From: an uncultured bacterium
GTDB taxonomy: Bacteria; Babelota; Babeliae; Babelales; Vermiphilaceae
Direction of reading: 5' to 3'
DNA length: 64,000 nucleotides
NCBI GenBank assembly: GCA_963701085.1
Contig: OY969561.1
Coordinates: forward strand, 768,001-832,000
Shown: positions 43,733 to 54,207 of the stretch, piece after piece
Layout of the letters: each line of letters starts with the position of its first letter
Position numbering within the stretch: the stretch's first letter is position 1
Made by a program: the position numbers and the translations under genes
Notes under the pieces: model-generated
Told to the model about the DNA's origin: nothing
The model's database searches: none
What the model saw: only the letters and a program-made list of their open reading frames with translations

Positions 43733-44734
43733 ATGCACACTATAACAAAAACTAATCTCATGTTTCTTGTAGCGATGACTTTATCAATAGGCTCGGTAGT
43801 AGCAATGGAACAAGAGTCTGAAGCAATAAGATACTCATTGTATAATATGAACTATTATACAAGAACATTATCGGGAGAAATCGACTCACTACTCAAAAAC
43901 TATGATGTAAAAAAATTATATGAAGATATTGGAACAGAAGCCAATGCGCGAACAGAAAATTATCATATAGACGATGAAAACATTTTACCATTACTCAAAA
44001 AACCTTGTAACCGCAGACAACAGCATACTGTTGAGTATAATGTTTCTCAAGGAAAGTCATTCACCATTGAAACAGAGCATTGCAAGCCATCTGAGTGTTT
44101 TTTTAAAATAAAAAAAGGCGTCACCCAGATTGTTTTTAAACCAACACCCGACAAAGAACTTCTGATAATAAGCCACGTAAGAGGCAACATTTTCAATGAA
44201 AAAATAGTTACGGAATTAGGATACGATGAGCTCAATAAAAAAGTGCTTGCAGAATTAAGGCACAATTTCAATAAAAAAGATTTTGCAAAATTAGGGCACA
44301 CCATTCTCAATGCAAACGTGCTCAAAAAATTAGGGTACGATAATTGGGGTAACAAAGTGCTCGCGAAATTGCAAATAATATACCCACATAGATTAATGAC
44401 AATAGAAAACCAACTCCATAATAAAGTATTTCTGAATGTGGTAGACCCTAGTAATCTTTCAAATTTGTCTCCTTACGCTTTTGTAGACAAGAACACAACA
44501 AAAGATTTTCTTATTTCAGAAAAAGAAATGGCTCACCAAACTATTACATTTCCTGGGGCATCCGATACAGTAAAACTACCAATAGAAGCAACAAAAACAC
44601 GTTTTATTATTACGCACGACCCTAATAGTAAAGATTTTTTTATGACAGATGCTCTTATAATAAATGCTGCATCTAAATTTAATGATTCTGGAGAAGTTAT
44701 CGGTAGCTTGACTGGGCTGACAAACGAAAAATAA
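43733..44734 (+). CDS. Secreted hypothetical protein with internal 12-13-aa repeats
   Basis: Signal ending VA-ME; five NxxVLxxLGxx units. Confidence 0.8.
   Translation: MHTITKTNLMFLVAMTLSIGSVVAMEQESEAIRYSLYNMNYYTRTLSGEIDSLLKNYDVKKLYEDIGTEANARTENYHIDDENILPLLKKPCNRRQQHTVEYNVSQGKSFTIETEHCKPSECFFKIKKGVTQIVFKPTPDKELLIISHVRGNIFNEKIVTELGYDELNKKVLAELRHNFNKKDFAKLGHTILNANVLKKLGYDNWGNKVLAKLQIIYPHRLMTIENQLHNKVFLNVVDPSNLSNLSPYAFVDKNTTKDFLISEKEMAHQTITFPGASDTVKLPIEATKTRFIITHDPNSKDFFMTDALIINAASKFNDSGEVIGSLTGLTNEK
44192..44371 (+). repeat. Degenerate 36-39-bp tandem repeat, about 5 units
   Basis: FNEKIVTELGYDE / LNKKVLAELRHN / FNKKDFAKLGHTI / LNANVLKKLGYDN / WGNKVLAKL. Confidence 0.7.
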
Positions 44735-44750: not shown

Positions 44751-45152
44751 ATGATGCCAACAAAAATCAATCTCATGCTCTTTGTAGTTATGACATTATC
44801 AACAGGCTTAATTACAGCAATGGAAGAGCCCAGCACTATAAAATGACAATAGAAAACCAACTATACAGTAAAATGTTTCTCAATGTACCAAACCCAAATA
44901 CTATTACGGACCAGTCTCCTTACGCATGTGTAAAAGGCAGAAAAACAAGAACATTCCTTCTTTCTCCAGAAGAAATAGCTAATCAAACTATTGCTATTCC
45001 TGGAGGGTATCCTTCTAATAAAGAACAGCTACCAATAGAGAAAAAAGAAACACGTTTTATTATTAAGAACCATTACTTATCAGGAACTTATTATAGAAGA
45101 TGATTCTAAAAAAATTATCGCTGAACTAAGCATAGTGTGTAATGCAAAATAG
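44751..45152 (+). pseudogene. Frameshifted short paralog of 43733..44734 (signal peptide plus C-terminal domain)
   Basis: MMPTKINLMLFVVMTLSTGLITAMEE, shift near 44830 into MTIENQLYSKMFLNV..., second shift near 45078 ending ELSIVCNAK*. Confidence 0.7.
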
Positions 45153-45734: not shown

Positions 45735-46199
45735 ATGAAACCATCGATAAAAACTATAATCAAACAATTTTCCGCACTTCTACTCATCGCCTCAATTTCA
45801 ACTACATGGCAAATACAAGCTATGAAACCAAAACAACGCCCACCAAAATCACTCGAATACAACAATTGCATCACGATCAAAAATGACAACCCAGACACTT
45901 TTATGCAAGTACTTTTTAAACGTAAAAAATATGATGCTTATGCAAAAAAATATTATCCGCTCAACGAATCTGGATTTATAGGTGATAAGCGAGAATGCAG
46001 GATGGAGAGAACCTATAATGATAGCTCCCAACTTACATTAGTCGATCCTGTTTCCCAAGAAAAAGAGCTCTTTTTATCAGCATATGACCAAGATCTTATC
46101 ACAATACATGCAATCAACAATAGAATGGCCCGTGTAACTGTAGAAAATAACAGTGAAAACCATCCAGAAGTAGAATTAGGTCACTTTACCTACAAATAA
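45735..46199 (+). CDS. Secreted hypothetical protein
   Basis: Start MKPSIK; signal ending IQA-MK. Confidence 0.7.
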   Translation: MKPSIKTIIKQFSALLLIASISTTWQIQAMKPKQRPPKSLEYNNCITIKNDNPDTFMQVLFKRKKYDAYAKKYYPLNESGFIGDKRECRMERTYNDSSQLTLVDPVSQEKELFLSAYDQDLITIHAINNRMARVTVENNSENHPEVELGHFTYK

Positions 46200-46220
46200 C
46201 ATCTTCTTATAGTATAAAAT

Positions 46221-46267
46221 AATAATAAGCAATCCCGGATTTTAACGGTCCGGGATTGCTTATTATT
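46221..46267. terminator. Perfect 19-bp-stem hairpin terminator
   Basis: AATAATAAGCAATCCCGGA-ttttaacgg-TCCGGGATTGCTTATTATT. Confidence 0.85.
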
Positions 46268-46294
46268 GACATACTAAAAACTTATACGTAATCT
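46266..46294 (+). promoter_or_regulatory. sigma70 promoter of the leader/transport operon
   Basis: TTGACA-17 nt-TAATCT. Confidence 0.65.
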
Positions 46295-46334
46295 AACTAT
46301 TGAAATTGATTAATTTAACAAATCAAGGAGCATC

Positions 46335-46451
46335 ATGATATCGTTGCAATTAGAACGATTACAGTATTGCGCAAACCCTCTCTATACGCTACAATTCAAT
46401 TATTCTGCGTCCTTTTTTACTATTCTTACCTCTTGGCGCCGTTGGTGCTAA
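46335..46451 (+). CDS. Putative 38-aa leader (attenuator) peptide, aromatic-rich, ending WRRWC
   Basis: AAGGAG RBS; MISLQLERLQYCANPLYTLQFNYSASFFTILTSWRRWC*; below the ORF-track cutoff. Confidence 0.6.
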   Translation: MISLQLERLQYCANPLYTLQFNYSASFFTILTSWRRWC

Positions 46452-46615
46452 ACCCCTTTTTTCTCATTTATTTCTAAAAGTTTCTCCATTTTTTATATCA
46501 GCAAAATAACCGTAATTCGACTACCACAATGCTACAGTTGCGTCATTTCTGCCATTACTATAGCAATAATGATGACACTTATGCCATTAATTTTTTGTAA
46601 CTATAAGGATCTCAT

Positions 46616-47467
46616 ATGAAAATATATACTCATGTAACTTACCTCGTTATGTCATTTGTATGCATCAATGCAATCGCCATGGAACAAACAATAACGTTCC
46701 ACAAGGCAAACCAAACTGATACCCTGCACATACTTAAAGTAATCAATGAACAGGCCATCCAAGACCATAAAAAAATAGTCATTTTACCTAAAAAATTTAG
46801 AGAAAGTGCTATTGAGCGGGACATTCTCAATAACAGGCTCTATGTGGCAAGGGAGAAACATTCAGACAACATAGTCGCCTTTAAGAAACTTTTTATTATA
46901 GATAATGAATCGGAATACAACGATATTACCAATGATGAAATACGGTGTTTTGGAGAAAAAAACCACTTTGTAGATGCGCACATTACAAACCAATGTTCTC
47001 AAAAAACCGCTATTACTCCCAATCAAATACCCTCATTTACGTTACATGATAGTGTCGTAATATATTTTGGTGGAGATTATACTGTTCCAACATATCGCAA
47101 CAAACAAATTAATTCTCAACTTATCCGGTATACATTTGAACAAGTGAAGAATGACATCGTTGACGCCATACAAACAAAAAACCTACAAAACATCGTTCTA
47201 CTCTACGGCCTCACCAAATTTAATGCTGGCGAAACATTGAATGGAATTGACCGAACGCCATCAATCATCGGTGCATTTGCACCGTTTGCCAAAAAAATAG
47301 CTACTCAATGTGGCAAAGAAGGCAGCAACACTCTTTATCACAGCCGCTACCAAGCGTTTATGCCAACATTTGATCCAGAAGACACAGAATGCAAACCACT
47401 ACCCGATGACCAAGCAATCCCTGGATACGGCAATGTGCTCATTTTTCCGTTAACCAGACAACAATAA
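46616..47467 (+). CDS. Secreted GNAT-like protein
   Basis: Signal ending IA-ME; ITFHKANQTD, LYVA...IVAF, YFGGDYTVPTYRNKQINSQL resembles GNAT motif A. Confidence 0.55.
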   Translation: MKIYTHVTYLVMSFVCINAIAMEQTITFHKANQTDTLHILKVINEQAIQDHKKIVILPKKFRESAIERDILNNRLYVAREKHSDNIVAFKKLFIIDNESEYNDITNDEIRCFGEKNHFVDAHITNQCSQKTAITPNQIPSFTLHDSVVIYFGGDYTVPTYRNKQINSQLIRYTFEQVKNDIVDAIQTKNLQNIVLLYGLTKFNAGETLNGIDRTPSIIGAFAPFAKKIATQCGKEGSNTLYHSRYQAFMPTFDPEDTECKPLPDDQAIPGYGNVLIFPLTRQQ

Positions 47468-47487
47468 ATGTATAACAAGGAACAAAG

Positions 47488-48501
47488 ATGAATAATCGCA
47501 CACTATTACTTACAATAGCTCTTACTATCGGAGCAGCTTCTATTGGGTATTATCTTGTAAAAAAACAACCAAAAAACAAAGATGGCCAAACATATCGCAT
47601 TGCCATTTTTGAGCCAGCATCTCACCCTGCGATGGATGAAATTGCACAAGGCTTTACCGATACTATTACAAAAAACAGCTCTGCCGATTATACCTTTAAG
47701 CGCTATAATGCAAACGGAAATCAAACACTTTTGCGCGCTCTCGCTGAAGAAATTGTTCAACAAAACTATGATCTTGTAATGACAATCGGTGCTGATCCAA
47801 GTAAAACAATGCATGAATTAACAACAAAGAAAAAATTATCTACTCCGATAGTTTTTGATGCAGTTTCTGATCCGATTGGTCTTGGCATAATTGCATCACG
47901 ATCATCATCAGGGAACAATATCACTGGGGTAGAAGAAGTTCATGATTATACAGATCAGCTCAATAGACTTCTTGCCGTAAAACCAAACACAAAGAATATA
48001 TTACTCGTCTATGATCCAGTGATTAAAGCAGGCATTCATGAAACATGGGCACAAGAAGTAACAAAGATCGCTGCTACCATGGGCATTGCTATTCACTATG
48101 CTAAAGTGTTTCACACCAATGAAATTTCCACAAAAGTACAACCACTCCTTAATAATATAGATGTCATGATGATTTTTACTGATCACACAACCGTCTCTGG
48201 TGTTGATAGCCTTATTACGTTATGTAATAGATACGGTATTACCCTCTATGCTTCAGATCTTAATTCTGGAGATAAAGGTGCAGCACTTGCCTATGGTATA
48301 CTGCAATACGATCTGGGCGTTGATGCGGCAGAATTAGCACTTATCATTTTGGAACAACATAAAAAACCAAACGAAGTGCCTATTATAAGCCCAAAAACTA
48401 AACGACTAAAAATAAATACAAAAACTATGGCAAAACAAGGCCTCACACTTTCCGATGAACAACGTGAAAATATTAAAAAAAGTGGTGGGATTTTTGTATG
48501 A
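47488..48501 (+). CDS. ABC substrate-binding protein (ABC_sub_bind / TrpX-like aromatic amino acid family)
   Basis: HPAMDEIAQGF, NANGN, PIVFDAVSDP, NITGV, TDHT, INTKT; N-terminal membrane anchor. Confidence 0.85.
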   Translation: MNNRTLLLTIALTIGAASIGYYLVKKQPKNKDGQTYRIAIFEPASHPAMDEIAQGFTDTITKNSSADYTFKRYNANGNQTLLRALAEEIVQQNYDLVMTIGADPSKTMHELTTKKKLSTPIVFDAVSDPIGLGIIASRSSSGNNITGVEEVHDYTDQLNRLLAVKPNTKNILLVYDPVIKAGIHETWAQEVTKIAATMGIAIHYAKVFHTNEISTKVQPLLNNIDVMMIFTDHTTVSGVDSLITLCNRYGITLYASDLNSGDKGAALAYGILQYDLGVDAAELALIILEQHKKPNEVPIISPKTKRLKINTKTMAKQGLTLSDEQRENIKKSGGIFV

Positions 48502-49691
48502 TCTCTTTTTTACAAAAATATCTCACCATTAATACATCACAACCCAATCCTGATTATGCATCAGTCTGCGCCCTTTTTAAGGCGCAGGCTGAATCTGATG
48601 GATTTTTATATAATGAAATTTTGCTCCCATCCGGAAAACCGGTTATCGTAATTACTTATGAGGGAACAGATGCTTCATTACCATCACTCATTCTTAATCA
48701 TCATATGGATGTAGTCCCTGCGTTAAACACCGAAAAATGGATACTACCACCGTTTGCAGGAGCTATTGATAATGACATCATCATTGGTAGAGGTGTTCAG
48801 GATATGAAGGGAGTTGGTGTTGCACATTATTATGCATTAAAAGAATTGCGCGATGCTGGCGTACAACTTACACGTACGGTGCATATTGTGGCAGTCCCTG
48901 ATGAAGAGATTGGTGGTTTTACCGGAACCAAACAATTTATAGAAACAGATTTTTTTAAAACAATGAATTGCGGCTTTGTTATTGATGAGGGTATTCCTTC
49001 TGGTGATGCCGCAAACTTGGCCATAAAAGTTACCGAACGCAAACCATTGCAAATACAAATCACGGTCACGGGATCACTTGCCCATGGCTCAAAACTCAAC
49101 TGTTTTAATGCGATTCATGAGCTGGTGAATATCTTAAACACAATAACTACTCATCATCAGATGCAACAAAAGGAAAGCGCTACACAACCTGACGGATTGC
49201 TGACTTCCATGAATATTACCTCACTCACTGCGGGCATGCACAGTGATAATCAAATATGCCTCAACATGGTCCCTGACTGCGCATCTGCGACGGTTGATAT
49301 ACGCGTTCCCCCAACAATGCGCATGCATGAAGCAACTGATTTTATTGAAAACCTGATCAACAAACACACCAATTGCACATATACTGTTCATGCTGCCGTG
49401 CCTGATCAGCATGTTAAAGATTCATATACAACGCCACTGTATAACAGCCTTGAACAGGCAATAAAAGAATGCGGCATTAGATCAGAACCGCTTTTTTTTG
49501 AAGGCTCATCAGATCTACGCTATTATAAAGCATTAAATATTGATGGGGTTGGATTTACCCCATTTACCACTACAAATGCTATCCATTGCACCAATGAATC
49601 ACTGCCTGTAGCCGACCTCATTCAAGGAAAAAATATTATGGTCCATTTTCTCAAAAAATTTTGCATAACCAAGGAGAACACCAATGGTTGA
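48498..49691 (+). CDS. M20 N-acyl-L-amino acid amidohydrolase (aminoacylase-1-like)
   Basis: INTSQPNPDY, LILNHHMDVVP, GRGVQDMK, VPDEEIGG, IDEG, SDLRY, HCTNE. Confidence 0.88.
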   Translation: MISFLQKYLTINTSQPNPDYASVCALFKAQAESDGFLYNEILLPSGKPVIVITYEGTDASLPSLILNHHMDVVPALNTEKWILPPFAGAIDNDIIIGRGVQDMKGVGVAHYYALKELRDAGVQLTRTVHIVAVPDEEIGGFTGTKQFIETDFFKTMNCGFVIDEGIPSGDAANLAIKVTERKPLQIQITVTGSLAHGSKLNCFNAIHELVNILNTITTHHQMQQKESATQPDGLLTSMNITSLTAGMHSDNQICLNMVPDCASATVDIRVPPTMRMHEATDFIENLINKHTNCTYTVHAAVPDQHVKDSYTTPLYNSLEQAIKECGIRSEPLFFEGSSDLRYYKALNIDGVGFTPFTTTNAIHCTNESLPVADLIQGKNIMVHFLKKFCITKENTNG

Positions 49692-50562
49692 AACTATTCT
49701 TATTATTACGGAACAAGCGCTGTTGCACTTTCCTTTAATTCTTGGGGCATATATCAGTGTATCTCTGATGAAGGTACCTGATTTAAGCATAGAAAGCGCG
49801 TATGTATTTGGCGCCCTATGTGCAAGCACTGTCCTACCATTTGTTCACCATCTTCCGTCTCTGATAAGTCTCCCTATTATTATATTCGCTGCTCTTATTG
49901 GTGGTGCATGCGTTGGGCTTACTTCGGGATTGTTGACACAAAAAGCACACATACCACATCTTCTTTCCAGCATTATCACCATTGGTATTTTTCATGGCGT
50001 TAGCCAACTTATTGCAGGAGTGTATATTTCTCTCAGTGGCTATACAAACATTCTAACACTTGATATGATTCCGCTGCACCCAGAATTACCACTTTTGGGT
50101 ATCATTTTTATAGTAGGTACACTGCTCGCTATCTATTTTTTTAAAACAGAACTTGGTTATTCACTCGCGGTATATGGTAACAATCCCAATTTCTTTGCTA
50201 ATTACGGCATATCATCAGCATACATATTTATGACTGGCATTCTTATTGCCAATGCGCTTGCGGGGCTGAGCGGCTATCTGTTCGCTCAATCAAATGGTTT
50301 TGCGGATATTAATATGGGCTTTGGAAAGTTATTACTCTGCGTAACCGCACTCATTTTGGGCAAAAGTATACATAACAAAACCTTATCATTTATTACCCCA
50401 ATTGCTGGACTGTTTGGCTATTTTACACTCCAACAATTGCTGCTTAAAGTTGGTTTTGATCTGCGTTATTTTACGGCAGTGCAAGCGCTGGTGATTGTTG
50501 CTATTCTCATCTCACAATATAAAAAAAATGAATCCCTTAATACTGATCATCTTGGAGTCTAA
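49684..50562 (+). CDS. ABC permease (BPD_transp_2, TrpY-like)
   Basis: PDLSIESAY, LLSSII, TELG, ANALAGLSG, GFADINMG. Confidence 0.88.
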   Translation: MVETILIITEQALLHFPLILGAYISVSLMKVPDLSIESAYVFGALCASTVLPFVHHLPSLISLPIIIFAALIGGACVGLTSGLLTQKAHIPHLLSSIITIGIFHGVSQLIAGVYISLSGYTNILTLDMIPLHPELPLLGIIFIVGTLLAIYFFKTELGYSLAVYGNNPNFFANYGISSAYIFMTGILIANALAGLSGYLFAQSNGFADINMGFGKLLLCVTALILGKSIHNKTLSFITPIAGLFGYFTLQQLLLKVGFDLRYFTAVQALVIVAILISQYKKNESLNTDHLGV

Positions 50563-50565
50563 CCC

Positions 50566-51267
50566 ATGAAAAAACTCATTATTAATAATATGTCTTTTAA
50601 ATTTAACGGCCAAAAAAATTACTTTTTCCACAACGCTCACATCACCTTTGAATCAGGCAATACCTATTTTATTCAAGGAAAAAATGGCGTAGGAAAATCA
50701 ACATTTTTTTCTATTTTGCAAGGCACAATACCACGCAATGCAACACTCACCGGCACCGTTATTTTTGACGCAGCAGAATTTATCATACAAAACAATTGCT
50801 TTGACCAAAAGCTCTGCTCTCAGATCAAAACAGTAGTCCAAGATGTTAATAGCATGATAGTCAACGCAATGACCGTAAAAGACAATTTACAGCTTGCGCA
50901 TTTACCAATGTATCCACGACTTATTCCGCTTGCTTACACGGTTACGATGTCAAAAATTATGCATCAATTTAATATTGACCAAGTGATGACCGTACAACAA
51001 TTATCAGGTGGCCAGAAACAGATTCTTGCAATCATGATGGCGCTCCAAAAACCAACGCAAATATTACTGCTCGATGAACCAACAGCAGCGCTTGATGAAA
51101 AAAACACGCACATGGTGATACAATTTTTAACTGATCTTGCAAAAACATTGGATTTAATCATCATCATTATTACGCATGACAAAGAACTAACCACCACGTA
51201 TGCAAAAAATCACGCGGTCACTATAAACATAGAAGACAATGGAACCCGTTCCATTAAACTATTGTAA
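50566..51267 (+). CDS. ABC ATP-binding protein
   Basis: GKNGVGKS, LSGGQ, LLLDEPTAALD, ITH. Confidence 0.92.
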   Translation: MKKLIINNMSFKFNGQKNYFFHNAHITFESGNTYFIQGKNGVGKSTFFSILQGTIPRNATLTGTVIFDAAEFIIQNNCFDQKLCSQIKTVVQDVNSMIVNAMTVKDNLQLAHLPMYPRLIPLAYTVTMSKIMHQFNIDQVMTVQQLSGGQKQILAIMMALQKPTQILLLDEPTAALDEKNTHMVIQFLTDLAKTLDLIIIIITHDKELTTTYAKNHAVTINIEDNGTRSIKLL

Positions 51268-51811: not shown

Positions 51812-52273
51812 AAATAAAACTTATCCTATACACAATGTAAAAGAGATAGAAAATGGCATTATACTGACGACTCCGTAATCTTCTTGAAAAAAGCTCACAT
51901 GATTTCAACTTACCTATTGGTGGCGATTCAACCGTGCAATTTGGAGATACGATCCGTATCGATTGTGATACAAGCAACAATAAACTTCATATTATACATA
52001 ATGATACAAAAATATTTGAAACACTCCCTATCACCAACCGCACCCTCAATCTTGGCCGTATCAAAACTATAAATAGACTTCATACCTATTAACAAAAATC
52101 GATTTTTGCAAGAAGATCCTGATTTTAAAAATGAACTTGCTAGTATATATCCATTAGATGATGATCTAGACGAACAATAATCATATTCCCTTGTGAACAA
52201 TGAAAAATATGTTACAATTATAATATAAAAGTAACATATTTTTCATTAATACCACTATTTGAGGGGTAAATGT

Positions 52274-53185
52274 ATGATTTTTTCTCCAACACAAGAACCT
52301 CCCAAAGCACCTAGTGTGATTGTATGGATTCATGGCACAAAGCCCGATAACCATCTCCCTCCTTTTCTTGAAAAATTAACCAAAAATGTATCTCACCTGC
52401 TTTGTGGCGATACAAAAGGCCTCCACAGAACAGCCGAGCTTGACGCACAACATTATCCCTTTTTACGCGCCAAGGCACTTGCAGTAGCCGATCCGGCACG
52501 ATTTAACGCAGAACACTTTTATACCTTTGGCTGGTCAGGCGAACTCACCCTGAAAGCACGCAAAAATGCTGCTCACGATCTTTTCAATGCTCTCAAAGGC
52601 TTGATAATCTCTTATCAAGAAAAATATTGCTCTACCCCTGAAATTATTCTTATTTCTCACAGCCATGGCGGCAATGTAATCTTACATTTAGCAGAAATCG
52701 ATGATCCTGATTGTAAGCTCTGTATATCAAAGTCAATATTACTCGCATGCCCCGTTCAAAAACATACCGCTCACTTGATTAGCTCACCCATTTTTGAGCG
52801 TATTTATTCACTCCACTCGCACACGGATATGATCCAAATAGCTGATCCACAAGGTTTACACAACAAAAAAAAATCAAGGCCATTATTATCACTCAGGCAC
52901 TTTGACGCTCATCCAAAACTAGTCCAAGTATTAATTCGTTGGAAAGAATATCCTCTCTGGAATACTGATGATTATGAAACCAATAAATTTGCCCTCAAGG
53001 GATTAATCAAAGCAATTAATACGCTGAACCTTATCAAAAAAGGACGCGGGCTCTTTCATGTTGAGTTTGGCTTACTTCCCTTTATTCGCCAACTCCCTGC
53101 CATTATTAATCAATTAGATCTACTTTTTGATACTGATAACAATTGTCCTTCACATAAAGATCATGACATTATCATAGAATTATAG
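52274..53185 (+). CDS. Alpha/beta hydrolase (Ser nucleophile)
   Basis: WIHGT, FGWSG, ISHSHGGN, LLACP. Confidence 0.82.
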   Translation: MIFSPTQEPPKAPSVIVWIHGTKPDNHLPPFLEKLTKNVSHLLCGDTKGLHRTAELDAQHYPFLRAKALAVADPARFNAEHFYTFGWSGELTLKARKNAAHDLFNALKGLIISYQEKYCSTPEIILISHSHGGNVILHLAEIDDPDCKLCISKSILLACPVQKHTAHLISSPIFERIYSLHSHTDMIQIADPQGLHNKKKSRPLLSLRHFDAHPKLVQVLIRWKEYPLWNTDDYETNKFALKGLIKAINTLNLIKKGRGLFHVEFGLLPFIRQLPAIINQLDLLFDTDNNCPSHKDHDIIIEL

Positions 53186-53244: not shown

Positions 53245-54207
53245 GTGATGAGAAAATGCATTACTCCTGATAAATATCGATTTTTTCTTTCTATTGTTCT
53301 CATACTCTTACCCGGATGTGTTCACCGTAGGCACGTTGACCGACAAAAATTACATATTGATATTCCCGCCACAAAAAATGCAATCGTTCATACATCTGAC
53401 ATTCCACCCACCATCACCATTTGGATCCACGGCACACTCATGTTCTACACACCAGAATATCATCAGATATTCAACAACAGTTCATGCTTGATGTCCGTTG
53501 CCGCATTCCCTGAAAACCATCATTTCCGCGTACTTGCTGAAACCATTGCCGAACACGATCCTGAACACTTCCCTATCCAAGAATTCTATATTTTTGGCTG
53601 GTCAGGAAAATTAAAACAAGAGGAACGTGAAAAGGCCGCCAAAAAACTCCATCAAGAGATCGTAACGTTGCGAGATGAGTATCAAAAAAAATATGGGTGT
53701 GTACCCATTATTCGAATTATTGCTCACAGCCATGGTGGTAATGTAGCGCTCAATATGGTAAAAATAAAATCTGCTTACCCCCCATTGCTTATAAAATCAC
53801 TGATACTCCTTGCATGCCCGGTACAAGAAAAAACAATGCATCTTATCAGCACCCCCATGTTCAACCGCGTCTACTCACTCTATTCCAGCTTTGATATGAT
53901 CCAAATCCTTGCCCCACAGTTTAAACGTACAAAACAGATACATAGGCAAACAACCCACCATAAAACCTGCTACTACAGTTTATTACCATTCTCATCACGT
54001 CTTTTCCCGACCTACAGCCACTTAACCCAAGCAAAAATAAAAATAAATGATTATCCAATATCCCATACGCGATTTTCAACCAAAGAATTCACCATACTCT
54101 TGCCAACAATTCTCAAAAAGCTCGATTTATGGCATGATGAAAGTCTTGCTACCAATAAAATTTCAAAACACAAACTTTTATGTATTTACAACAACAAAAA
54201 ATATTAA
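53245..54207 (+). CDS. Alpha/beta hydrolase lipoprotein, paralog of the previous gene
   Basis: Lipobox LPGC; WIHGT, FGWSG, IAHSHGGN. Confidence 0.82.
   Translation: MMRKCITPDKYRFFLSIVLILLPGCVHRRHVDRQKLHIDIPATKNAIVHTSDIPPTITIWIHGTLMFYTPEYHQIFNNSSCLMSVAAFPENHHFRVLAETIAEHDPEHFPIQEFYIFGWSGKLKQEEREKAAKKLHQEIVTLRDEYQKKYGCVPIIRIIAHSHGGNVALNMVKIKSAYPPLLIKSLILLACPVQEKTMHLISTPMFNRVYSLYSSFDMIQILAPQFKRTKQIHRQTTHHKTCYYSLLPFSSRLFPTYSHLTQAKIKINDYPISHTRFSTKEFTILLPTILKKLDLWHDESLATNKISKHKLLCIYNNKKY

Follow-up and report, generated by a model that had tools for sequence, protein, structure and literature searches.

A candidate tryptophan-starvation operon in Dependentiae combining a signal-bearing GNAT-fold protein, an ACY1-like M20 hydrolase and a TrpX-type importer

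Introduction

Why would a bacterium encode, next to an amino-acid importer, one protein of a fold that attaches acyl groups and another of a family that removes them, and equip the first with an export signal? This question is raised by an operon at positions 46266-51267 (forward strand) of a 64,000-nt stretch of DNA, here called the window, which lies within a single 1,198,634-bp contig of an uncultured bacterium of the Dependentiae (TM6). The operon consists of a promoter-like site and a 38-codon leader open reading frame (ORF), followed by five tightly packed genes for a GCN5-related N-acetyltransferase (GNAT)-fold protein, a substrate-binding protein, an ACY1-like M20 amidohydrolase, and the permease and ATPase belonging to an ATP-binding cassette (ABC) importer. 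The original prediction, made from the sequence of the window, had listed these elements, and all of them were found where it had placed them. It proposed a general scavenging route, in which the exported GNAT acetylates host amino acids, the importer takes up the N-acyl form, and the cytoplasmic aminoacylase releases the amino acid. This interpretation was partly supported: the fold, the signal, and the linkage stood, and the N-acyl import, the generality, and the novelty did not.

In the present study, we tentatively read the operon as a tryptophan-starvation module, in which an exported GNAT would N-acylate tryptophan outside the cytoplasm and the M20 enzyme would recover it. We adopted this reading because the M20 enzyme depends on the GNAT while the GNAT does not depend on it, an export signal is retained on the GNAT, the M20 enzyme is predicted to lie outside the membrane where importer genes are not alongside and inside where they are, and a tryptophan leader precedes the genes in a probable auxotroph. 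Its premise is that the bacterium is a predicted tryptophan auxotroph with an intracellular life; trpB was not found in the genome (completeness 92.6%), and trpS was present. A cultured member of the Dependentiae has inner and outer membranes and almost no amino-acid biosynthesis (PMC6561590).

Results

Linkage of the GNAT and M20 Genes

The three gene families were searched for in 261 Dependentiae genomes (named below by G and a number), with thresholds of E≤1e-5 for the GNAT, E≤1e-30 for the ACY1-like M20 enzyme, and E≤1e-15 for the binding protein. Matches to the GNAT family were obtained in 44 genomes, to the M20 enzyme in 32, and to the binding protein in 90. Wherever the M20 enzyme was detected, in 32 of 32 genomes, the GNAT was present too; a further 12 genomes carried the GNAT without the M20 enzyme, and none carried the M20 enzyme without the GNAT. 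The GNAT gene lay upstream of the M20 gene, on the same strand and within 1.3 kb, in 30 of the 32, the two exceptions being fragmented assemblies. These results supported a conserved linkage of the two genes across Dependentiae.

Three gene orders were observed, namely GNAT-SBP-M20-permease-ATPase (SBP, substrate-binding protein), which is that of the window, GNAT-M20-SBP-permease-ATPase, and SBP-GNAT-M20-permease-ATPase; therefore, the GNAT-M20 pair and the importer were joined, or rearranged, more than once. By inspection, we found GNAT-only loci in G003 and G009 and importer-only operons in G001, G008, G217, G002, G005, G020, and G019. Remnants of the GNAT gene were kept in two of the latter, G002 and G005, whose sequences indicate a recent loss of the GNAT and M20 genes with retention of the importer. 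The distance between the leader and the binding-protein gene at these two loci (L056 and L057, respectively) was about 400 nt, and this interval included decayed GNAT fragments, which in G002 contained three stops. The sole GNAT-M20 pair outside records titled Dependentiae was found on a contig titled Parachlamydiaceae (L020:5900-10036); its GNAT had no signal and its M20 enzyme no anchor, and a second, partial M20 gene (residues 160-390) lay 1.5 kb downstream, after small toxin-antitoxin-like ORFs. This pair may represent a gene transfer or a binning error.

The strict one-way dependence of the M20 enzyme on the GNAT and the fixed order of the two genes would also be expected of an effector-antidote pair, in which acetylation of an essential amine by the GNAT would be damaging to the host or to competitors and the M20 enzyme would undo the same modification in the producer. 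Tandem GNAT paralogues in G035, G241, and G130, as in many effector families, point in the same direction. Nevertheless, we consider such a pair improbable, since it gives no reason for tryptophan-codon control or for repeated joining to a TrpX-type operon in three gene orders, and activity of the GNAT precursor ahead of its export is improbable.

The Signal-Bearing GNAT-Fold Protein

The first gene of the operon (46616-47467, forward strand) encodes a GNAT-fold protein of 283 amino acids with a cleavable-looking signal peptide (residues 1-21). Its N-terminus, MKIYTHVTYLVMSFVCINAIA followed by ME, has the n-h-c form of a signal peptide, with a cleavage-like site between AIA and ME. A hydrophobic N-terminus ending in A-x-A before M-E was retained through the family in nearly all relatives; it was missing only from the copy on the Parachlamydiaceae-titled contig and from one that a contig end truncates. 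The description of the protein as signal-peptide-bearing was supported by the conservation of this N-terminus across the family. A lipoprotein signal was also considered and was rejected, as no lipobox was seen by eye around Cys16.

No Pfam or NCBIfam match was obtained for the window protein, and no GNAT model matched it even at E≤1. Among 5.8 billion proteins, 49 homologues were detected at E≤0.01, none of them named, and the family is so far almost confined to Dependentiae. An AlphaFold (AF2) model from 42 aligned sequences reached a predicted local distance difference test score (pLDDT) of 93.9 and a predicted template-modelling (TM) score (pTM) of 0.88. Foldseek returned 225 matches against the PDB at E≤0.001; among the matches listed, all were GNAT acetyltransferases, led by insect arylalkylamine N-acetyltransferases (2.7e-6). 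Their TM-scores, normalised on the query, reached only 0.28-0.40, which is explained by some 100 additional residues in the protein. The independent aligner VIA-align gave a Z of 13.7 to EctA, with 157 of 160 residues at a root-mean-square deviation of 3.0, and 191 chains at Z≥8. Weak Pfam matches were found within the 42 family members, to Acetyltransf_7 in 15 (best 6.7e-5) and to Acetyltransf_1 in 10 (best 7.6e-4), and the language-model neighbours of the protein were GNAT clusters with scores up to 0.94. Collectively, the modelled structure strongly suggested the GNAT alpha/beta fold. The guess that the protein is GNAT-like was borne out by Foldseek, VIA-align, and the weak Pfam matches of its relatives, and not by the Pfam or NCBIfam results for the window protein.

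The invariant and near-invariant residues of the family were concentrated in GGDYTxPxYRNKGINS, at beta4-alpha3 'motif A', the position of the GNAT cofactor loop. In comparison with the motif A pyrophosphate loop, which we take to have the form Q/R-x-x-G-x-G/A, the Arg and the position are kept, and both glycine positions vary or differ (R-N-K-G-I-N in the family and R-N-K-Q-I-N in the window). Mycobacterium Eis and Legionella VipF are secreted GNAT effectors that use host acetyl-CoA and act on host proteins or drugs. The window protein would resemble them as a GNAT-fold enzyme that leaves the bacterium and uses host acetyl-CoA, although here Sec export is predicted only; unlike it, Eis and VipF are not known to be paired with a deacylase or importer.

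Several genomes carried tandem GNAT paralogues. G035 has at least two (C3:36077-38077), where a pair of long open frames gave several partial matches; G241 has two (L060, 5712-7428), and G130 has two or three that are partly broken (L061, 340-2285). Tandem expansion of this kind is a frequent pattern in host-directed effector families.

The M20 Hydrolase and Its Two Predicted Topologies

The M20 gene (48498-49691, forward strand) shares 4 nt with the gene for the binding protein and 8 nt with that for the permease; elsewhere in the operon, 20 nt separate the GNAT and binding-protein genes and 3 nt the permease and ATPase genes. Its product consists of a catalytic domain (PF01546, 1.7e-32) and a dimerisation domain (PF07687, 1.4e-10). 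The best of 50 NCBIfam models was TIGR01880, the eukaryotic N-acyl-amino-acid amidohydrolase (265.1 bits, below the cut-off of 338.6), and the best PDB match was human ACY1 (1q7l, 5.1e-33). In the alignment to 1q7l, the active-site residues were kept, namely H in HHMD, D in QDMK, EE in PDEE, and E in IDEG; the 1q7l chain used does not cover the C-terminal His. The proposed identity as an ACY1-like M20 aminoacylase agreed with these metal and catalytic residues, from which the activity is predicted. In its catalytic residues and its M20/dimerisation architecture, the protein is thus like human ACY1 and TIGR01880. It is unlike ACY1 in being bacterial and operon-embedded, in falling below the TIGR01880 cut-off, and in having anchor-fused counterparts in 13 relatives. 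Mammalian ACY1 prefers aliphatic N-acetyl amino acids.

The window M20 enzyme has no signal or anchor and is predicted to be cytoplasmic. ABC genes were found alongside the pair on the same strand in 18 genomes, including one (G050) with the ABC genes 1.1 kb upstream of the pair and two (G035 and G158) with the locus split over contigs. The importer-linked M20 enzyme begins directly at the catalytic domain, and a hydrophobic N-terminus was absent in all 16 resolved cases, two others being cut or unclear. Intact M20 enzymes without same-strand ABC genes carried an N-terminal extension of 33-50 residues with a hydrophobic helix, and this was observed in 13 of 13 Dependentiae genomes. These anchored (class-B) forms start with ATG in 12 genomes and with GTG in one (G071). 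One further genome, G069, had only broken M20 copies. PF04392, the family of the binding protein, was absent at E≤1e-15 from 11 of the 13 genomes with an anchored M20 enzyme, and G258 has a neighbouring importer operon on the opposite strand.

The class-B extensions resemble the anchors of the binding proteins, with a hydrophobic run ending in aromatics and often an MNK(Q/K) start. Binding-protein anchors must face outward, and the class-B M20 enzyme is accordingly predicted to lie outside the cytoplasmic membrane. A possible origin of the anchor is an in-frame deletion in a GNAT-SBP-M20 operon that fused a binding-protein anchor to the M20 enzyme. Both forms occurred within four family-level groups, and the best 120 of 451 metagenomic M20 homologues fell into two length classes of about 400 and about 427 residues. 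The association between anchor and importer was perfect but involves few independent events; an independent-pairs test found only one pair on supported branches, and we claim no significance. The switch fits the topology of the original prediction, with import followed by cytoplasmic deacylation, and so does the absence of the M20 enzyme from every genome that lacks the GNAT.

The same three gene types are found in the yxe (scm) operon of Bacillus subtilis, which encodes the GNAT YxeL, the ABC importer YxeMNO, the deacetylase YxeP, and YxeK/2SL (PMC9706529). There, the GNAT N-acetylates an amino acid, the amidohydrolase frees it, and the importer supplies the substrate, all three gene classes being in one operon as in the window. 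The original prediction knew of no description of such a gene combination; in general terms, the yxe operon shows this to be wrong. Unlike the chemistry considered for the window, that of yxe is cytoplasmic, acts on cysteine adducts, and needs a middle enzyme. Unlike yxe, the window operon has a GNAT with an export signal, a PF04392/PF02653 importer, an ACY1-like M20 enzyme, and a tryptophan-codon leader, with no conserved middle enzyme. The shared gene types would also fit a similar cytoplasmic acetylate-process-deacetylate salvage or detoxification, in which an amino-acid derivative, once imported, would have its amino group blocked by a GNAT at the inner face of the membrane and later unblocked by the M20 enzyme. 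There is little to recommend this for the window operon. No conserved middle enzyme was seen at the inspected loci, and the route would be a futile cycle without one; moreover, the GNAT N-terminus has the form of a signal peptide with an A-x-A site, and the M20 enzyme gains an anchor like that of outward-facing binding proteins.

The Tryptophan-Codon Leader

The gene upstream of the operon ends in a strong terminator hairpin (46225-46265), directly before the promoter-like site (TTGACA at 46266-46271, a 17-nt spacer, and TAATCT at 46289-46294, forward strand). A Shine-Dalgarno sequence, AAGGAG (46325-46330, forward strand), stands 4 nt before the ATG of the leader ORF (46335-46451, forward strand), whose 38 codons read MISLQ...TSWRRWC-stop, with two Trp among the last five. 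Both Trp codons and the stop codon are enclosed by a hairpin, TTGGCGCC-GTT-GGTGCTAA (46433-46451, forward strand), with 8 pairs, 4 of them G-C, a free energy (dG) of -9.7 kcal/mol, and a z of -2.26 against shuffles. A generic promoter scan was not above chance (30 sites against 29.9 expected). TTGACA with TAxxxT about 17 nt downstream also aligned ahead of the leaders of several relatives (G007, G005, G199, G071, and G043), and the promoter and leader of the window are credible because they recur in relatives.

The leader was widely conserved. ATG-started leader ORFs of 25-59 codons with Trp-containing ends were found in 19 of 21 aligned upstream regions, 14 of which showed a Shine-Dalgarno-like sequence; the end motifs included WRRWC, WRWWR, WRSWR, WRWQR, WRWCH, WRWHA, WPWA, CWRWANSWR, WFNIWA, and similar ones. 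A small ORF with terminal Trp and a T-rich tail was present in 26 of 44 related upstream regions, compared with about 4 expected from the background rate of 0.089 per 650 nt at the same loci. Only two ORFs of the stricter two-Trp pattern were found genome-wide (1.2 Mb), and one of them was the leader of the operon. Hairpins in or against the Trp and stop codons were observed at all 21 aligned loci, with a mean dG of -8.0 kcal/mol and a mean z of -2.5, and 17 of the 21 were below -1.5. The stems differed by lineage with the pairing kept (GGCGC/GCGCT, GGCC/GGCC, TTGGGC/GCCCAA, and GGCGG/CCGCC). The 20-nt hairpin pattern was single-copy per genome and was located at the operon in six genomes of the genus. 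A copy with one mismatch was noted far from the operon, at G016:C1:183379-183398.

The leader preceded four kinds of locus. Besides the linked operons, it stood on importer-only operons (G001, G008, G217, G002, G005, and G019), on GNAT-M20 loci without the importer (G012, G239, G043, G071, G053, G065, G073, G196, and G024), and on one GNAT-only locus (G009). Therefore, the predicted tryptophan-controlled set includes the GNAT and M20 genes in their own right. That the leader exists and is conserved was observed, and from this we infer in which direction and by what mechanism it would act. A T-box or another known RNA was rejected, as a search of 46150-46700 with Rfam at E≤10 returned only sub-threshold chance matches; the best match, Thr_leader (36.4 bits against a threshold of 55), lay on the terminator of the upstream gene. 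A rho gene is encoded in the genome. Because no T-box was found, no antiterminator was seen, and Rho is encoded, two mechanisms are possible, one like trpL, in which a stalled ribosome would occlude the terminator, and one like tnaC, in which Rho would be blocked. GCGC/GCCAA segments were noted, by eye only, as a candidate alternative pairing in aligned leaders.

The E. coli trpL attenuator and tnaC arrest peptide are short ORFs with Trp codons near the end, next to a terminator or termination site and upstream of tryptophan genes. The window leader is like them in being a short ORF with late Trp codons that adjoins a terminator. It differs in that the terminator stem itself encloses its Trp and stop codons and that alternative pairing of the 1:2/2:3/3:4 kind was not seen. 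Moreover, the genes behind it are not biosynthetic or catabolic but encode an importer, a deacylase, and a GNAT with an export signal.

The Importer and Its Ligand

The importer is encoded by three genes on the forward strand, for a TrpX-like binding protein with an N-terminal membrane anchor (47488-48501; PF04392 ABC_sub_bind, 4.9e-51), a permease (49684-50562; PF02653 BPD_transp_2, 1.6e-17), and an ATPase (50566-51267; PF00005, 9.8e-22). This composition of PF04392, PF02653, and ABC ATPase is that of the TrpX-type set. Against the TrpX equivalog (NF041285), the binding protein scored 162.9 bits, below the cut-off of 390, and its PDB matches to solved PF04392 proteins ranged from 1e-26 to 1e-19. 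Among solved relatives, 3LKV binds Phe, 3LFT (SP1069) Trp, and 6HNI Tyr, and two residues set the preference (PMC6816091). In the alignment, the window protein has Gln at the Gln-284 position of the Trp binder SP1069 and Asp at the Glu-263 position of CD0873. A second PF04392 paralogue, 25% identical, was noted outside the window at G000:C1:903268-904182; the rest of the genome yielded no other leader of the type described above.

The ligand contacts given for TrpX of S. suis in PMC9382623 are T108, A127, T129, D152, N233, and Q273. We mapped these contacts onto the window protein with a HMMER alignment to 3lft and a MAFFT table. By this sequence mapping only, A127 corresponds to A, T129 to S, D152 to E, N233 to H, Q273 to Q, and T108 probably to A. 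Two contact positions thus differ from TrpX, Asp to Glu and Asn to His. Streptococcal TrpXYZ and the window operon are alike in the PF04392 family, in the types of permease and ATPase, and in a leader with a terminator that responds to tryptophan, a response only predicted for the window. Unlike that of TrpXYZ, the window leader is translated and is not a T-box, two extra enzyme genes are embedded, and the binding protein is below the equivalog cut-off. An adaptation of the pocket to an N-blocked ligand was considered and rejected, because loss of the Asp152-equivalent acid, seen in 9 of the 19 linked binding proteins and in 2 of the 7 from importer-only operons, showed no clear association.

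The family matches and the residue mapping supported the aromatic-amino-acid type predicted for the binding protein. The system probably serves tryptophan, as the Trp-codon leader and the Gln at the Trp-specificity position suggest, rather than general amino-acid scavenging. The simplest predicted substrate of the importer is free tryptophan. Nothing was found to support uptake of the N-acyl form, since relatives keep the importer and its pocket motifs after losing the GNAT and M20 genes; such uptake would be at most an added ability.

That importer-only operons keep the leader and the pocket motifs raises another explanation, in which free-tryptophan import is accompanied by two co-regulated helpers that are chemically uncoupled. 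The M20 enzyme would then free Trp from N-blocked amino acids or short peptides of the host, and the GNAT would be a host-directed effector induced by tryptophan hunger, for example one that acetylates host proteins to slow translation or to raise free amino acids. We regard this as unlikely, though it has several points in its favour. GNAT-only loci exist (G003 and G009, with 12 genomes carrying the GNAT without the M20 enzyme), the top VIA-align matches include protein N-terminal acetyltransferases, and many presumed effectors of Dependentiae bear signal peptides (PMC6561590). However, the M20 enzyme occurred without the GNAT in 0 of 32 genomes and directly downstream of it in 30 of 32, which is hard to explain if its substrate is purely host-derived. 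Tryptophan is not a usual acetylated protein N-terminus; therefore, host turnover should yield little N-acetyl-tryptophan. This explanation also leaves unexplained why the M20 enzyme moves outside the membrane when importer genes are not alongside.

Neighbouring Genes

Downstream of the operon, the window contains tandem paralogues (52259-53185 and 53245-54207) that share WxHGT...GWSG...SHSHGG and look like alpha/beta-hydrolases. Homologues of these genes were found near the operon in relatives (L009, L010, L011, L012, and L024). Upstream, an ORF of 86 amino acids (44843-45103) repeats the C-terminal part of the preceding 333-amino-acid ORF (43733-44734; MTIENQL..KxFLNV..P..SPYA), and this repeat is a local duplication or a gene remnant. 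Signal-like N-termini were also observed on the ORFs starting at 43733, 44843, 45257, 45681, and 51353.

Discussion

The reading that we prefer is the idea of the original prediction narrowed to tryptophan; it explains most of the constraining facts, and we still rate its chance as somewhat less than even. In this reading, transcription would begin at the conserved promoter and pass a leader ORF that ends in Trp and stop codons inside a terminator-like hairpin. When charged tRNA-Trp is scarce, a ribosome would stall in the leader and hold the hairpin open, and RNA polymerase would read on; alternatively, a tnaC-like arrest would block Rho. The GNAT would be exported by its Sec signal and would reach a compartment with acyl-CoA, most likely the host cytosol, where it would N-acylate tryptophan and make it unusable by the host. 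The M20 enzyme would then strip off the acyl group. In genomes like that of the window, this would happen in the cytoplasm once the TrpX-type ABC importer has taken the compound up; in genomes without the importer in the locus, it would be the work of an anchored enzyme outside the cytoplasmic membrane. The importer probably carries free tryptophan as well. Gene content, folds and families, linkage, topology signals, and leader were established in this analysis, and from them we infer which substrates and acyl donor are used, where the GNAT ends up, and how the regulation works.

A bolder form of this reading, which we find doubtful, is that Dependentiae privatise host tryptophan: under hunger, a secreted GNAT would make N-acyl-tryptophan from host tryptophan or Trp-tRNA, and the bacterium alone would reclaim it. 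In the same, equally doubtful proposal, reclaiming would proceed through import and a cytoplasmic aminoacylase or through a surface-anchored aminoacylase, under a new kind of Trp-codon leader whose sensing codons lie within the terminator, and the whole would amount to a new strategy of nutritional parasitism.

Several observations weigh against the tryptophan-starvation module. With regard to the importer, all six mapped pocket motifs are identical or nearly so in the binding-protein orthologue of the importer-only genome G001, which shares 68% identity with that of the window. An acidic residue stands at the Asp152-equivalent position in 10 of the 19 linked proteins and in 5 of the 7 importer-only ones, and Glu is kept in the window. 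Importer-only operons carry the same leader; therefore, the importer works without the M20 enzyme, most simply by carrying free tryptophan. With regard to topology, the trait required four changes on a quick maximum-likelihood tree of 31 M20 enzymes, and only one of them was forced by well-supported branches. With regard to the leader, ACCCC separates the hairpin from a six-T run (46457-46462), so that the run starts 5 nt past the stem and the window hairpin is therefore a weak intrinsic terminator; the T-run lies 1-2 nt past the stem in G007, G002, and G005. The whole leader (46290-46620) folded no better than shuffles (z of 0.23), and no antiterminator pairing stood out in the fold of this region.

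The remaining points concern the GNAT. The window protein itself has no Pfam match, and it reads YRNKQINS where the family reads YRNKGINS, the Q replacing the first Gly of motif A. A hydrophobic N-terminus, by a crude measure, was found on 373 of the 872 ORFs of at least 150 amino acids in this genome (about 43%), and with such a proportion a signal alone is weak evidence. The Sec signal delivers only to the periplasm, which is without acetyl-CoA, and a further assumption is needed to bring the protein into the host. For the proposal of an exported GNAT acting on host amino acids, the export signal was therefore supported and the host delivery was not. The step that the tryptophan-starvation reading assumes, and that is unproven, is that the GNAT reaches acyl-CoA, most plausibly in the host cytosol. 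Two secretin-domain genes are present in the genome. In a cultured member of the Dependentiae, 44% of coding sequences bear signal peptides, presumed host effectors included, and outer-membrane vesicles were observed (PMC6561590). With the secretin genes, the signal-bearing presumed effectors of the phylum, and the vesicles, a route past the periplasm is conceivable for the GNAT.

A further explanation is that the GNAT-fold protein is periplasmic and uses no acyl-CoA, with binding or transfer from another donor, and acts with the M20 enzyme on an envelope or nutrient substrate. The Sec signal alone predicts the periplasm, the class-B M20 enzyme is predicted to face the same compartment, and the window protein deviates from motif A at one Gly. 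Even so, we judge this explanation highly improbable; conservation in the family is highest in the cofactor loop that is characteristic of GNATs using CoA, and no periplasmic acyl donor is known for the GNAT fold.

Literature searches returned nothing on Dependentiae with aminoacylase; nothing pertinent was among the matches listed for N-acetyltryptophan with aminoacylase and ABC transporter or for Dependentiae with tryptophan and acetyltransferase, and no Trp-codon leader was described there for the phylum. The window operon departs from yxe in that its GNAT carries an export signal, no middle enzyme is present, the importer is TrpX-type, the deacylase switches its topology, and the sensing codons of the Trp-codon leader lie inside the terminator.

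Dependentiae are widespread and almost uncultured parasites of protists, and their acquisition of amino acids has been deduced only from transporter lists. The module described here contains two conserved opposing enzymes, an acyltransferase and a deacylase, that are predicted to act in different compartments, and the form of the deacylase, cytoplasmic or anchored, depends on whether importer genes adjoin it on the same strand. Should the acyl-tryptophan idea fail, a tryptophan regulon is marked by the leader all the same, which gives a first functional context for an unannotated protein family. Should it be true, a parasite would have a novel means of keeping a scarce nutrient of its host for itself.

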